Assembly: GCA_016839515.1 (NCBI GenBank)
Contig: JAEOUE010000188.1
Span: 1-26,209, forward strand
Direction: 5' to 3'
Length of the DNA stretch: 26,209 nt
From: Candidatus Hodarchaeum mangrovi
GTDB taxonomy: Archaea; Asgardarchaeota; Heimdallarchaeia; Hodarchaeales; Hodarchaeaceae
In this document: positions 17,050 to 22,243 of the stretch, piece by piece
Layout of the letters: each line of letters begins with the position of its first letter
How positions within the stretch are numbered: the stretch's first letter is position 1
Program-made: the position numbers and the translations under genes
Notes under the pieces: model-generated
What the model saw: only the letters and a program-made list of their open reading frames with translations
Told to the model about the DNA's origin: nothing
Database searches by the model: none

Positions 17050-18819
17050 GTGTGTTTTTTGGCAAAAATAAACCCAAAACTAGCATTCATTCAAAGTATA
17101 GCAGAACAAGAGCGACTTCAAGATCAACAAATCTCTGCTGAAATCAAATCTGCTCTTAATATTCTTCAAAGATCCCCAAAGTCTTATTATACACTTCAAG
17201 ATATTGAAAAAATGCTCGAAGGATTGAAAGTAAAGATGCAGGAAATAAATAAATCAACACATACTGAATTTTCAAAGCGAGGTTTAAAAGAGGTAGATAA
17301 TCTCGACTTGATGGATACTAGTGTCACATTAATCACTATAGAGGAATTAGATCAGCTCAAACGCGAAAATACAGAATTGAAAGAACAAAACTCTGATATT
17401 ACCACTTTCGAGATGAAAATAAATGATTTAAATATTCTATTAGAAGAAAAAGAAGCTTTGATCTCCCAATTAAAAAGTAAACCAGAAATTGACTCTAAAA
17501 AGGTACAAGAAACTATTCAGGAGTTAAATCGTCTTCAAAAACTTTATGATGAATCACAACGTGAATTTAAAAAAGCAATTATGGAAAAAGAAAAGTTTGA
17601 AACAGAATTTGAGAATATTGGCAACACTCTTATGGCTACTCGATTAGAAATAGAAGAATTGCAGGAAGTCCTCGCCAAAAAAGATATTGAAATTGGAAAT
17701 CTTACCTCAGAGGTTCAAGTTTTATCCATACAGGCTGAAGAAAATATTAAAATTAAAGAAACATTAAACAATCGAGAGAAAGAACGCGAAACTATAAAAA
17801 ACGAACTGAGAGATTATAGAACGAGGATCTCTAACCTAGAAAAGGAACTCAAAAACCAAGAAGAGAAAATTGAGGAACTAGAACAAGAAAATGAGGATCT
17901 CCTTCTAGATTCAGGAGAAACAGCCCAAGAGGCTGTTGAATTAAGGAGAAAATTAACTGATTTACAAAAGAACCTTGATCAACGAGAAGCAGAATTTCGA
18001 GAATTATCAATTAAAGCTGAGAGAAGCGACCGAGACACACAGGAAGTGTCAGAACATTTACAGAATCGGCTAAATTCTTTACAAGAAGAACTTAATGAAA
18101 CTCGTAAGATTAATTTAAGTTTAGAATCAAAGATTGAGGAACTTGACATCGAAATCAAGAGCAAAAACGAAAGAATCACTATTATAGAAAAAGATAAAGA
18201 GAAACTCCTAGAATCATTCTCAAATTTGAAAATTGAACAAGAAAAACAAAAATCAACAATTAATGATCTTAAAACTCAACTTACAACTAAAGAAAGCGAA
18301 TTAGATGAAATTCAAAAAGAATTGGAAACACAAAGAGAAGCAAAGGAGGAAATTTCACATATAGCAGATAGTTCACGATCAAAACAAGCTGAAGCTCAAA
18401 GAGAACGCGATATTTTCGAAACAAAAATTAGAGCACTAGAAACGAGAATAAAGGATTTTGAATCAGCTAATGAAAGACTAGAAAAAAGAACGAATGAGTT
18501 ATCGAAAGATTTGGAAAAGATTTCTCAAGATTTAATGGCTACAACAAACCTTAACAAGAAATTGGAAAAATCTAACTTAAAACTTAAAGATGTGGTTGAG
18601 ACTTTACGAGTGAACCTTGCGAAAAATCCTAAATTTGCTTTATTATTTATTTTACAGGACATTCGACAAGCATCAGTTGGAGAACTGGCAAAATCAGCAG
18701 CAATTCAATTAGCCTTTGCAGCACGATTATTACAAGATCTTCATTCTGAAGGTTGGATTGAATTCAATGAAGAAACTGGAATTGCTTCACTAAAAAAATC
18801 ACTTCTTGAAGCAGAATAA
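17050..18819 (+). CDS. Long coiled-coil protein with C-terminal winged-HTH-like domain (start probably TTG17059)
   Basis: About 430 aa of E/K/L/Q-rich heptads without ATPase motifs; C-terminal PKFALLFILQ..ASVGELAKSAAIQLAFAARLLQDLHSEGWIEF. Confidence 0.8.
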   Translation: MCFLAKINPKLAFIQSIAEQERLQDQQISAEIKSALNILQRSPKSYYTLQDIEKMLEGLKVKMQEINKSTHTEFSKRGLKEVDNLDLMDTSVTLITIEELDQLKRENTELKEQNSDITTFEMKINDLNILLEEKEALISQLKSKPEIDSKKVQETIQELNRLQKLYDESQREFKKAIMEKEKFETEFENIGNTLMATRLEIEELQEVLAKKDIEIGNLTSEVQVLSIQAEENIKIKETLNNREKERETIKNELRDYRTRISNLEKELKNQEEKIEELEQENEDLLLDSGETAQEAVELRRKLTDLQKNLDQREAEFRELSIKAERSDRDTQEVSEHLQNRLNSLQEELNETRKINLSLESKIEELDIEIKSKNERITIIEKDKEKLLESFSNLKIEQEKQKSTINDLKTQLTTKESELDEIQKELETQREAKEEISHIADSSRSKQAEAQRERDIFETKIRALETRIKDFESANERLEKRTNELSKDLEKISQDLMATTNLNKKLEKSNLKLKDVVETLRVNLAKNPKFALLFILQDIRQASVGELAKSAAIQLAFAARLLQDLHSEGWIEFNEETGIASLKKSLLEAE

Positions 18820-18855: not shown

Positions 18856-19707
18856 ATGGATGTTGTTTCACTCCTAAAGCTATGTAAAAAGAATTTAATC
18901 GGTTTAGATTCAGAAATTAGTTTAATAATTTCAGCAATAGACAACCAAATTCCAGTAATGATAGAGGGAGACTCAGGAACTGGGAAGACTGAATTAGCAA
19001 AAACCTTAGCATCTGTTTTATTAAGGCCATTCTATAGAGTTGATGGGGATGAAAATCTTACTATAAATAAAATAAGGGGATGGTTTGATCCTCCATTAGT
19101 AATGAAATTAGGCTTTAGTAAACAAAGTTTTGTTGCAGGTCCATTAGTTAGGGCAATGCAAGAAGGAGGACTTTTTTTCTTTAATGAAGTGAATAGAGCA
19201 CCCAGTGAATCATTGAATGGTGTATTAGCAGCAATGGATGAAAGGAAAATTGACATCCCCCAAATGGATCGAATAGAAGCAACTAATACTTTTTATTCGA
19301 TCTTCACTTTAAATCCACAAGAATACGTTGGGACAAATCCACTTCCAGAAGCTTTTTTTGACCGCTGTATATTAATAAAATTATCACATAAGTCTGGTCA
19401 AGAGGCAGAACAAATTGTTCAGCTACGTACAAATTATAATAATAATGATCTAATTTCTAAAATTGTTAAATTTACAGACGAAACGAGAATTTCAAAGTAC
19501 TTTGAGAGAGGAGCTAGTGTAAGAGCTGCAATTCAATTGACTCAGCTTTTGAAAAGTCAAATATTATCTCCTGAAAATGTTCTTTCTGCAATTTTTGCAG
19601 TATATTCAGGAAAAGTAAAATTACACCCAGATATTGCAAAATCCGTGAATGAATGCTTGAAAGAACTCGCTGAACCGATTTTTTTAATCCCAACAAAAAA
19701 CTCATAG
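18856..19707 (+). CDS. MoxR-family AAA+ ATPase (CoxD-like)
   Basis: Walker A GDSGTGKT, FVAGPLVRAMQEGG, Walker B variant FFFNEVNRA, TLNP, LPEAFFDR, sensor-2 SVRA; SD AGGTG upstream. Confidence 0.88.
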   Translation: MDVVSLLKLCKKNLIGLDSEISLIISAIDNQIPVMIEGDSGTGKTELAKTLASVLLRPFYRVDGDENLTINKIRGWFDPPLVMKLGFSKQSFVAGPLVRAMQEGGLFFFNEVNRAPSESLNGVLAAMDERKIDIPQMDRIEATNTFYSIFTLNPQEYVGTNPLPEAFFDRCILIKLSHKSGQEAEQIVQLRTNYNNNDLISKIVKFTDETRISKYFERGASVRAAIQLTQLLKSQILSPENVLSAIFAVYSGKVKLHPDIAKSVNECLKELAEPIFLIPTKNS

Positions 19708-19726
19708 AGCGGGACGTTGATCCCGC
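19695..19726 (+). other. Putative -1 programmed ribosomal frameshift element
   Basis: In-frame A_AAA_AAC (19695-19701), 7-nt spacer, hairpin GCGGGA-CGTTGA-TCCCGC (19709-19726); the -1 frame is open into the VWA ORF. Confidence 0.72.
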
Positions 19727-19748
19727 AATTCTCTACTATCAAAAGCTG

Positions 19749-20735
19749 GTGAATTCCACCTTTAAAAGTTCGCTACTTGAACAAATTTATGAAGTTCAAT
19801 CCCAACAAAAATTTGACCAAAGTAAAGCTTTTGATTTCACACGAAAGGCGTTTCAGCATAAGGAAATCCACGTAGTAGAACTTATTTCTGAATCATTCCC
19901 TAAAATTGTTACAGAGGTTATTGAACTAGATAAAATTGATTTGAATTTAATCTTAGAGTCATCTACATTAATATTTCAACTTAAGGAATACTTAAGTGCT
20001 GAAGATCGCAAATTTCTCTTACAGAAAATTATTCCTCGCTTAATAAAACATGCAGAAAAAATATATAACACTATAAACAGATCTAAATACCCCAATGTTC
20101 AATCCTATTCTCCTGGTAATGAATGGGATACAGAACGTACTATAGAAAATTTTTTATGTTCAGGAGACTCGTATTTTTCTTATAAGCATGTTATTTGCAG
20201 CACAAGATATGAAAAACAGAAGAATGTGATCCTAATTATAGATAAAAGTCATTCAGTTTTACTCTACCTCAAATGGATTATATTAACCTCAATACTATTT
20301 TGTCGATCAATGAAACTTAAAGACATCTCGCTTATTGTTTTTGACACTTCAACAGAACTTCTTAAGTCATTTAATGACATTTCCATCAATGTTGATAGTT
20401 TAACGAATAGATTAGTTAATCTTGGGTCTGGAGGAAAAACAAATATTTACTCAGCTCTTGAGCTGGCAAATTCTGAATTTTTAAAACGTATAAGTCCTCA
20501 TAAATCTCTTGTGATGATTTCAGATCTCTTAGCAACTAGTGGAGCAGATTTTTTGCCTCTTTTAAAACGAATTGAGCATGTAAAGATTATCTTGACCCCA
20601 AGAAGACAGACACTCCAGTTAACAAAACCAATTTTAGGAGAATTAAGACGGATGGCTAATGTAAAAATTCATTTGATGCCAACAGATGAAAAAGATATCC
20701 CAAAAATGTTGGAACAAGTCCTATATGACTATTAA
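19749..20735 (+). CDS. VWA (MIDAS) domain protein, CoxE-like; probably made as a frameshift fusion with the upstream AAA+ domain (frame open from 19674)
   Basis: WDTERTIEN (D..RT signature), VILIIDKSHS (DxSxS), GGKTN, LVMISD. Confidence 0.82.
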   Translation: MNSTFKSSLLEQIYEVQSQQKFDQSKAFDFTRKAFQHKEIHVVELISESFPKIVTEVIELDKIDLNLILESSTLIFQLKEYLSAEDRKFLLQKIIPRLIKHAEKIYNTINRSKYPNVQSYSPGNEWDTERTIENFLCSGDSYFSYKHVICSTRYEKQKNVILIIDKSHSVLLYLKWIILTSILFCRSMKLKDISLIVFDTSTELLKSFNDISINVDSLTNRLVNLGSGGKTNIYSALELANSEFLKRISPHKSLVMISDLLATSGADFLPLLKRIEHVKIILTPRRQTLQLTKPILGELRRMANVKIHLMPTDEKDIPKMLEQVLYDY

Positions 20736-22243
20736 CTTCTCACACCTGAAATATTTTCCTTAATAGTTACGGAGGTAACACGATTCAAGATTTCTTCATA
20801 TTGTTGGGGATTGAAAAATCTAAAAACAGCTAAAACTCTTGTTCTGAAGTTAGGATGATCCTGATCCTGCTCATTAGTTCCTAATAATTCATGTTCAAAA
20901 ACCATTTTATCGGGTTGAGCAATTAATGTCTCAATAAAACTCTCAATTTCCTCTTCCTCTAATATAAAGTTCGAATCTGAATCAAAAAACCTCCAATCAA
21001 TAGTTTTTTGCTTCAAATCACTTGGTTTCAAATCTTTTGATTCTTCATCTAAATCAGCAAAATATTTACTCCTTTTTTCTAATAAAGCGGGAACAGCTTT
21101 TTCTATCAATTCATTTTTTATTTTCTCATCCAATTCAATTCCATAATTACTTATGAGCTCATCAAATTTCGCTTCAAGGAATACTTTAGGAGCATTTTCT
21201 CTTGCAATATCTTCATCAAGCTGATTTTTAGGGAATCTTTGATTCACCATACGAAGAAAAGCTGTTGTGGGCTTCCTCGAACCTGATAAACCTTCTAACC
21301 ACTCAATTTCACGATATAAGGTCTGCATTGCCTCACTTCTTTGACCCAAATGGATTAAAGAATTTATAAGGACATTAGGCCCAAATAATTCTGCAGCATA
21401 ATAATCTGCTAAAAATTCTGCATTCCTATTTGCTGAATAAAGAAAATGCACAGTAAATCTCATAACAAATGCTATTAACAAATATACAAATAAAAGAAAA
21501 ATTGCTCGATTCAGAGCTGCAAGATAATCCTGACTATCGAAAATTGCAGTGAGTATCCCAGTCCCAACTTGGAGATAAATAAAAAGATAAGCTAGAGTTA
21601 AAAAGGTTCGTGGTATTGATAAGACTAATCTGACCAAACTATCTCCATTTTTTACGTGAGCTAATTCATGTGCGATTACAGATTCAATTTCCTTATCATT
21701 AAGAATTTCTAAAACATTAGTATTAAGTACAAGGTAGGGGCGTCTTAAAAAAGGAATTGGAAGTAGATCCAAACTAAAAGCATTAGGCACAGCTTTTCGA
21801 TATACAAAGATTTTCGTTACTCGAATCTTTGCATGATTGGACACTTTAGTGACTAATGAAATTGTTTTTTCTACAAGTGGTGCTTCTTCTGGTGAGTGTG
21901 CAGGACCATAGAGTGGTTCAGGATATATTTGAACCATATTCTTATTTGAAAAAACAATATTAATCAGAAACGCTAAAAGTAGGATCTGTAATCCAGCTGT
22001 GAGTAAAACAAGAAGAGCTGTAAATCTAAGGTTTATATCTCCAGTTTCATCAAAAGGATTTAGGGTTATGTAAAAACCAAAAATATGAAGTGCTTTCATA
22101 GAAAAAGGGGTGTTAGTCGGTATTTGAGGAGGAATTTGGCGTATTGATACCCAAGAAACGAAAATCATCTGTAAATATGTGAGTAAAAAGAAAATTGCAG
22201 CATTAAACATTCGTGAAAGTCTTATTCTTAGGATAGATGTCAA
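20732..22243 (-). CDS. M48 (HtpX-like) membrane zinc metalloprotease with extended C-terminal insert
   Basis: Four TM segments, PNAF, VIAHELAH (HExxH), RNAEFLAD (third ligand), HP..RTR; GAGGA upstream of the TTG start. Confidence 0.87.
   Translation of the reverse strand: MTSILRIRLSRMFNAAIFFLLTYLQMIFVSWVSIRQIPPQIPTNTPFSMKALHIFGFYITLNPFDETGDINLRFTALLVLLTAGLQILLLAFLINIVFSNKNMVQIYPEPLYGPAHSPEEAPLVEKTISLVTKVSNHAKIRVTKIFVYRKAVPNAFSLDLLPIPFLRRPYLVLNTNVLEILNDKEIESVIAHELAHVKNGDSLVRLVLSIPRTFLTLAYLFIYLQVGTGILTAIFDSQDYLAALNRAIFLLFVYLLIAFVMRFTVHFLYSANRNAEFLADYYAAELFGPNVLINSLIHLGQRSEAMQTLYREIEWLEGLSGSRKPTTAFLRMVNQRFPKNQLDEDIARENAPKVFLEAKFDELISNYGIELDEKIKNELIEKAVPALLEKRSKYFADLDEESKDLKPSDLKQKTIDWRFFDSDSNFILEEEEIESFIETLIAQPDKMVFEHELLGTNEQDQDHPNFRTRVLAVFRFFNPQQYEEILNRVTSVTIKENISGVRS

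Follow-up and report, generated by a model that had tools for sequence, protein, structure and literature searches.

The window examined here is a stretch of 26,209 nucleotides (nt) of DNA from Candidatus Hodarchaeum mangrovi, an Asgard archaeon, in which a gene for a MoxR-class AAA+ ATPase (moxR) runs into a second open reading frame (ORF), in the -1 frame, for a protein carrying a VWA domain. An earlier note on this DNA, made from the letters alone, had proposed that the two are joined by programmed -1 frameshifting, one locus making both a free ATPase and an AAA+-VWA fusion. Comparison with related sequences supports the proposal: very probably the 3' end of moxR carries a programmed -1 ribosomal frameshift site. 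The features of the junction are given below, with positions counted from the first letter of the window.

18856..19707, plus strand: moxR, MoxR-class AAA+ ATPase, zero-frame product of 283 amino acids (aa) with C-terminus ...IPTKNS before the stop (ORF list, Pfam)
19695..19701, plus strand: slippery heptamer A_AAA_AAC (pattern X_XXY_YYZ) in the moxR frame (sequence; kept in relatives)
19702..19708, plus strand: 7-nt spacer, which includes the zero-frame stop TAG (sequence)
19709..19726, plus strand: putative stimulatory hairpin, with arms GCGGGA (19709-19714) and TCCCGC (19721-19726) around the loop CGTTGA (RNAfold)
19674..20735, plus strand: -1 frame ORF, opening after TGA 19671-19673 and closed by the stop at 20733-20735
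19701-20732, plus strand: post-slip coding part of 344 aa, first a disordered linker (about 22 aa), then a helical domain and finally the VWA domain, which has a MIDAS motif
19749..19751, plus strand: GTG, the first start codon (ATG, GTG or TTG) of the VWA frame and a possible separate initiation site
19680..19686, plus strand: T_TTT_TTA, a second potential slip site (T7 run) in the moxR frame, within the open -1 stretch

The gene moxR ends CCA ACA AAA AAC TCA TAG, the TAG lying at 19705-19707, and the A run within the heptamer comprises six residues (A6, 19695-19700). The predicted products are the free ATPase of 283 aa and a fusion of 282 + 344 = 626 aa. The earlier note's description of the moxR end, heptamer, spacer, hairpin, open -1 frame, GTG19749 and product sizes proved accurate base for base, and inspection of the sequence agreed with it in that no purine-rich, Shine-Dalgarno-like stretch was seen before GTG19749. 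The 45 nt following the heptamer fold at -11.0 kcal/mol, a figure that may be compared with a locus background of -3.9 +/- 2.6 kcal/mol and that falls in the lowest 1.2% of 433 folding windows. Rfam returned no match at E <= 1 within 19500-19900.

Could such a junction be an artefact, a homopolymer assembly error masking a plain fused gene, or a pseudogene formed by a 1-nt deletion? Homopolymers are error-prone in metagenome assemblies, and the window comes from a draft genome (4.0 Mb in 348 contigs, 32.9% G+C). Against this, Logan contigs from three runs, belonging to three studies, span the junction without an inserted or deleted letter and so again give A6; these are assembled contigs rather than raw reads, one of them may be the window's own source, and a fourth run (X8) had no covering contig. 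At the level of contigs, the A6 on which the earlier note relied is thereby borne out. The same -1 phase recurs in 46 other genomes, single-contig ones included, and both halves of the locus are intact and conserved. We regard artefact or decay as extremely unlikely. Two single-letter differences were seen in the runs: a synonymous A>G at 19692 in one of them and, at position 19398 within moxR, a G in all three covering assemblies where the window has T, the latter being either a strain difference or a consensus error.

Few gene pairs in the host genome resemble this one. The genome has 2791 ORFs with a length of 150 aa or more; in 179 of them the stop is crossed by an open -1 frame of 200 aa or more, and eight of the 179 carry a canonical heptamer within their final 30 nt. 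Just two of the eight lack an overlap start codon and have a strong hairpin: the window locus (first start at +44 nt, -11.0 kcal/mol) and a paralogue on contig C295 (+191 nt, -14.5 kcal/mol). The remaining six pairs, which sit on contigs C40, C123, C149, C154, C202 and C266, each carry a start codon within the overlap or shortly ahead of the stop (2 to -28 nt) and fold weakly downstream, at -2.5 to -6.3 kcal/mol; they are probably ordinary overlapping genes.

Conservation of the junction in relatives

Comparison at the sequence level shows that the signal, its phase, the length of the trans-frame part and the structure are conserved, and that a natural in-frame fusion exists. Orthologues were compared within the genus in 21 rows, namely the window, L003-L021 and L069; L001 and L002 both represent the window locus, and L002 was the one counted. 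Loci in which one gene was not found by the queries or was cut by a contig end were left out before counting (L022, L027, L028, L030, L044, L060, L061, L063, L064 and L065). Of 21 other genomes in the genus, 20 gave an orthologue to the VWA query, and the moxR orthologues are 62-70% identical.

In every one of the 21 genus rows the VWA frame is -1 relative to moxR, and in every one a canonical A-rich heptamer (A_AAA_AAA, AAC or AAT) stands in the zero frame 0-15 nt before the moxR stop. The -1 frame is likewise open at the heptamer throughout; in six rows it opens just 0-3 nt upstream, as would be expected from selection on the slip point alone in AT-rich DNA. The T_TTT_TTA of the window, which sits 9 nt upstream of the A heptamer, is not kept as a slip site in the orthologues; in several of them the T run is interrupted and the -1 frame opens too late to include it, 0-3 nt ahead of the A heptamer. 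From slip to stop the 19 complete rows measure 339-344 codons. Start codons show no such regularity: no position is conserved across the genus orthologues, and the first start in the VWA frame scatters from -51 to +576 nt relative to the slip point, lying within +30 nt in 4 of 21 rows. Some rows have none for 96-192 codons, the extreme being L007 with 192.

The hairpin arms GCGGGA/TCCCGC are kept in 17-19 of the 21 rows, and in 18 the 45 nt after the heptamer rank, by folding energy, among the lowest 5% for the locus concerned. A further structural suggestion of the earlier note, that loop UUGA pairs with UCAA at 19739-19742 as a pseudoknot, fared less well. The letters are present, yet the four pairs form in 27.4% of cells over the 21 rows and slid controls do equally well; the downstream alignment used is ungapped and variable, so this rejection is a weak one.

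A sister family (f3), sampled through 26 loci with both genes, repeats the arrangement. The VWA gene is in -1 phase in 26/26 rows, the slip site is always A_AAA_AAA, in the context CGA/AGA/TCA AAA AAA G.., and the trans-frame length is 340-344 codons. The hairpin has its own, variable sequence, examples being CCTTACA/TGTAGGG, CCCTAC/GTAGGG and CTCTATCA/TGATAGAG. In alignment A1 both-side, compensatory changes affect all seven pairs of the inner helix; over the whole structure 90.9% of cells are paired, as against 27-58% when the partners are slid by 1-3 columns, and none of 500 shuffles reached the covariation score. A stable fold after the heptamer, again in the lowest 5% of the own locus, is present in 20 of the 26 rows. 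Around the variable hairpin, A1 columns 22-26 and 50-56 hold an invariant GGTGA(C/T) before and ATGA(A/G)CC after it, with a potential 3-bp outer helix GGU/ACC; the same motifs also encode G-D and D-E-P, and the outer helix, because it is invariant, is uninformative on pairing.

With the two families pooled (21 genus and 26 f3 rows), the -1 phase, the -1 frame open at the heptamer and the zero-frame A-rich heptamer are each found in 47/47, and the 45 complete rows measure 339-344 codons between slip and stop. The earlier note had pointed to phase, heptamer and hairpin, the last with compensatory changes, as the properties to be compared among orthologues. Phase and heptamer are upheld without exception. 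For the hairpin the stable fold is widespread in both families and covariation is seen in the sister family, but the genus core is invariant.

A further family, f6, contains the fused form. In genome G041 a single in-frame AAA+-VWA ORF of 638 aa (L056 192-2108, minus strand, G041:C74) is colinear with the predicted fusion, the window MoxR aligning to residues 7-272 and the VWA part to residues 320-637. Its junction reads CCG AAA AAA CGC, retaining in frame the two lysine codons of the slip site. The f6 protein occurs in four database clusters at 87-100% identity, from three sources and always fused, one of them named Candidatus Kariarchaeaceae archaeon. This gene lends support to the earlier note's suggestion of a form intermediate between split and fused systems. 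Among annotated proteins, no long relatives of the VWA part (603-2000 aa) were found at E <= 1e-8, and the search turned up no annotated 626-aa product, which is weak evidence.

The paralogous type, mentioned above for contig C295 of the same genome, shows a comparable arrangement built on T rather than A. Its slip site is as follows.

G000:C295:37541-37547 (locus L070 1742-1748), minus strand: paralogue slip site T_TTT_TTA

This second moxR-VWA pair reads CGT TTT TTA TAA; a short spacer and a GC hairpin (-14.5 kcal/mol) come next, no start codon appears until 191 nt past the stop, and the trans-frame part has 356 codons. Together with its orthologues in four genomes of the genus it shows CGT TTT TTA TAA/TAG, the VWA frame at -1 in 5/5 and a length of 355-356 codons, with a hairpin 5-6 nt downstream (TCCCGAG...CTCGGGA or a covarying form). 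Loci of f5 and f7 cluster with the C295 paralogue in alignment A3 and are in -1 phase in 9/9, mostly with T_TTT_TTC. When 400 genomes of the phylum were searched with a profile, 343 proved to have the paralogous family. In 20 high-scoring loci from 13 families the phase was -1 in 20/20, a T-rich site accompanies the moxR stop and the hairpins differ among loci; the T run in this type is often merely T4-T5.

Evidence for and against ribosomal slippage

Several observations count against a ribosomal slip, and these are collected here with the alternatives on which they bear. No RNA run was listed with the locus, and two RNA runs of one study contain practically none of its sequence words. Compared with shuffles, the 81-nt fold reaches merely z = -1.66, which is not exceptional. 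Within the genus the hairpin core shows no covariation, only pair 20:39 switching between GC and AU (three rows), because the core is nearly invariant. Its arms also encode RD.DPA in the -1 frame. They do so, however, with CGG, GAC and CCC, which make up 6.1%, 15.8% and 12.8% of the Arg, Asp and Pro codons in the genome, and this use of rare synonymous codons points to selection on the RNA beyond the encoded peptide. Finally, the genomes compared are related and hence not independent samples.

Without any recoding, the locus could consist of two cistrons, with the VWA protein starting at GTG19749 or by reinitiation after the moxR stop and the hairpin serving coupling or mRNA stability. In this genome GTG19749 precedes the conserved block LLEQIYE and lies upstream of the conserved VWA part, so that an independent VWA protein could be made here without recoding; in the sister family an ATG at +75/+78, present in 17 of 26 rows, would allow a shorter free VWA protein. 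Among the 20 phylum loci of the paralogous type, six (L080, L081, L083, L086, L089 and L093) carry a TTG or ATG that overlaps the moxR stop or immediately precedes it, and TTGA- or ATGA-type overlaps of this kind mean that ordinary coupling can also yield the -1 phase. A normal separate VWA gene is found in one locus, L031 (G035:C58, family f4), where it is in +1 phase and has an ATG of its own 7 nt past the stop. These points are to be set against the lack of any conserved start, the constancy of ORF length as measured from the heptamer and the conservation of the heptamer itself. The -1 frame is, moreover, always open at the heptamer though stops are frequent at 33% G+C, nothing like a Shine-Dalgarno sequence was seen before GTG19749, and a naturally fused homologue exists. 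Two cistrons without recoding are, in our view, quite unlikely to be the explanation.

The other possibility is slippage in transcription, in which RNA polymerase adds one A on the A run and part of the mRNAs encode the fusion in frame, with no slip of the ribosome. A single extra A would give the same product, and in Thermus dnaX slippage takes place on A9 (PMC3711429). Although the window has just A6, and 16 of the 21 genus rows have A6-A7, the others reach as many as 13: A runs of 9-13 occur in five rows, three of them without the hairpin, a pattern that fits transcriptional slippage and would be expected if long runs make the hairpin dispensable. On the other hand, a hairpin 3-8 nt downstream is a hallmark of ribosomal stimulation and is still untranscribed while the polymerase is on the run; it is kept in 18 of the 21 genus rows and covaries in the sister family, and in the paralogous type the run frequently has just four or five T residues. 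For the window locus we consider this explanation distinctly unlikely.

Runs of A10-A11 are found in L019, L020 and L021 (genomes G016, G001 and G008), and these rows, alone in the genus, lack a stable hairpin; L021 retains just the 3' arm, and homopolymer lengths in draft assemblies are uncertain. Such rows may have turned to transcriptional slippage, on at least two occasions, as in dnaX. A programmed ribosomal frameshift is thus the reading that we favour for the junction in the window, with transcriptional slippage and separate initiation at GTG19749 as possible contributors.

The encoded proteins, known systems and a proposed mechanism

The moxR product matches the Pfam families AAA_5 (E 2.8e-21, 76.4 bits against a cut-off of 22) and AAA_3 (E 4.7e-15, 56.1 bits against a cut-off of 27). 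The second ORF matches VWA_CoxE (39 bits, cut-off 26.4) as well as VWA_2, and its MIDAS motif is intact, with DxSxS, T and D unchanged throughout 25 sequences. The part after the slip, modelled with AlphaFold at a mean predicted local distance difference test score (pLDDT) of 85.8, comprises a helical domain to about residue 128 and then a VWA fold. The pLDDT drops under 50 at residues 1-5 and 13-22 and averages about 49 over the first 20 residues, which the hairpin and the variable linker encode. The best fold matches of the VWA model in the PDB are NorD chains in NorQ-NorD complexes (E 3.3e-7, template modelling score 0.41-0.59), and MIDAS domains of Rea1/MDN1 are among the matches at ranks 14 and 11. 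By sequence, MoxR matches NorQ (E 1.2e-8) and the bacterial MoxR 2r44 (45.4 bits) in the PDB; the VWA part has no match to solved structures at E <= 0.01. In NCBIfam there are sub-threshold matches only, to GvpN, MadB and BchD-ChlD. The GvpN model gives 78.2 bits against a cut-off of 266.8, so that the protein is not its equivalog, and no NorQ or CbbQ model is among the NCBIfam matches.

Two affiliations were tried and rejected. Membership of chlD is not indicated, since there is no Pfam Mg_chelatase match at E <= 0.01 and the BchD-ChlD model TIGR02031 gives 22.5 bits against a cut-off of 499.55. A special kinship of MoxR with midasin is not indicated either: the top rank of midasin (E 9e-44) is an artefact of summing over eight stretches, the best single stretch scoring 39.9 bits, below the 45.4 bits of the bacterial MoxR 2r44.

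To our knowledge the NorQ/NorD, CbbQ/CbbO and GvpN systems consist of separate genes without recoding. The proteins described here resemble such pairs, the AAA_5-type MoxR matching NorQ and the VWA fold being nearest to NorD. In NorQD a finger of the VWA protein enters the central pore of the hexamer (PMC13036017), an arrangement that implies few VWA domains per ring.

As for the manner of expression, the closest parallel is with chlD, the medium subunit gene of magnesium and cobalt chelatases, in which a -1 shift on A_AAA_AAR gives short AAA+ and long AAA+-VWA subunits and for which archaeal members have been predicted (Antonov et al. 2013; Kuznetsov et al. 2022; PMC3711429, PMC5009743, PMC9227772). 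The two share an A-rich heptamer for a -1 shift between AAA+ and VWA parts, a short and a long subunit from one locus, a poly-A length that varies between members, in-frame fused homologues and, for chlD by prediction, members in archaea. Unlike chlD, the present genes encode AAA_5/AAA_3 rather than Mg_chelatase domains and a CoxE-like VWA domain preceded by a helical domain, and they are found in an Asgard lineage with a compact, conserved hairpin. The dnaX gene uses a ribosomal -1 shift in E. coli and transcriptional slippage in Thermus (PMC3711429). It too is an AAA+ gene that yields two products through an A-rich heptamer and downstream hairpin, with a long A run replacing the ribosomal signal in a relative, and the genus rows with A10-A11 and no hairpin resemble that switch. 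The shifted product of dnaX is, however, the shorter one, whereas here the shift adds a whole domain. In midasin (Rea1/MDN1), the AAA_5 modules and the C-terminal MIDAS/VWA domain belong to one chain, and this domain docks on the chain's own ring (PMC13036017). The predicted fusion shares the covalent link between AAA_5 and C-terminal MIDAS/VWA, but the midasin chain, at about 4900 aa, carries six AAA modules.

On the reading favoured here, most ribosomes would read AAA AAC TCA and stop at TAG, releasing the free 283-aa ATPase. A fraction would pause at the GC hairpin 7 nt downstream, whereupon their tRNAs could slip back by one base on A_AAA_AAC and translation would go on in the -1 frame; we infer that the slip is made by the ribosome. 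In the resulting chain of 626 aa a flexible linker (about 22 aa) would connect the complete AAA+ module to the helical domain and the VWA/MIDAS domain. It may co-assemble with free MoxR subunits into a hexamer, in which case the frequency of slipping would set a low number of tethered VWA domains per ring, consistent with the geometry of NorQ-NorD, where there is one VWA per pore. If one pore takes one finger, a minority of tethered VWA chains per ring would be sensible. A sub-stoichiometric number of VWA adaptors per hexamer, as put forward in the earlier note, could thus be what the recoding provides, to judge from this analogy.

More broadly, one may imagine that recoding of moxR/VWA genes is ancient across the Asgard archaea and has been kept in two paralogous systems, which pass between four modes (coupled separate genes, ribosomal -1 frameshifting, transcriptional slippage on long A runs and in-frame fusion), the point being that each AAA_5 hexamer has about one MIDAS domain tethered; given a lineage labelled Hodarchaeota/Heimdallarchaeota, the fused product would then possibly be an archaeal counterpart of the covalent AAA_5-MIDAS arrangement in eukaryotic midasin and VWA8. 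Taken as a whole we think this scenario unlikely.

Demonstrated -1 frameshifting is nearly absent from archaea. The only archaeal case reported as demonstrated, according to a 2021 review, is fucA1 of Saccharolobus solfataricus (PMC8211752). That gene encodes an unrelated alpha-L-fucosidase in a single species, unlike the present signal, which extends over dozens of species and two paralogous families. The moxR-VWA junction would be a case at family level, strongly supported by comparison, in those archaea that are closest to eukaryotes. The literature, searched as full text with supplementary tables outside its scope, yielded no paper describing frameshifting for MoxR/VWA genes or for the Asgard archaea. 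The match to MoxR and frameshift, PMC7911831, concerns a tail-chaperone shift of a virus, the other matches were judged from titles and abstracts, and the sole Asgard match deals with IS982 transposases. Further frameshift clusters are given in Supplementary Table S1 of PMC3711429, a part of that source lying outside the search, and might include an AAA/VWA cluster.

If the favoured reading is right, the solution known from chlD, free AAA+ and AAA+-VWA from one locus, would have arisen again in a different AAA+ family. The signal is compact, at about 32 nt, and directly testable in reporters. The annotation of these genomes would be corrected as well, the VWA ORF in them being likely called truncated or from an arbitrary internal start, and the split, recoded and fused forms would make up a natural series for studying how MoxR rings engage VWA adaptors.

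Neighbouring genes

The upstream neighbour of moxR (17050-18819, plus strand) encodes a 589-aa coiled-coil protein with a weak MarR-like (winged helix-turn-helix) match at its C-terminus, and ends 36 nt before moxR. Downstream, a convergent gene for an M48-type peptidase (20732-22243, minus strand) follows the VWA ORF. Both neighbours are usually retained in the genus, the coiled-coil gene in 35 of 36 loci and the peptidase gene in 33 of 36, a set in which the same genomes occur twice. Loci L095-L112, which belong to the same genus as L003-L021, were used for synteny and stand outside the counts given above.

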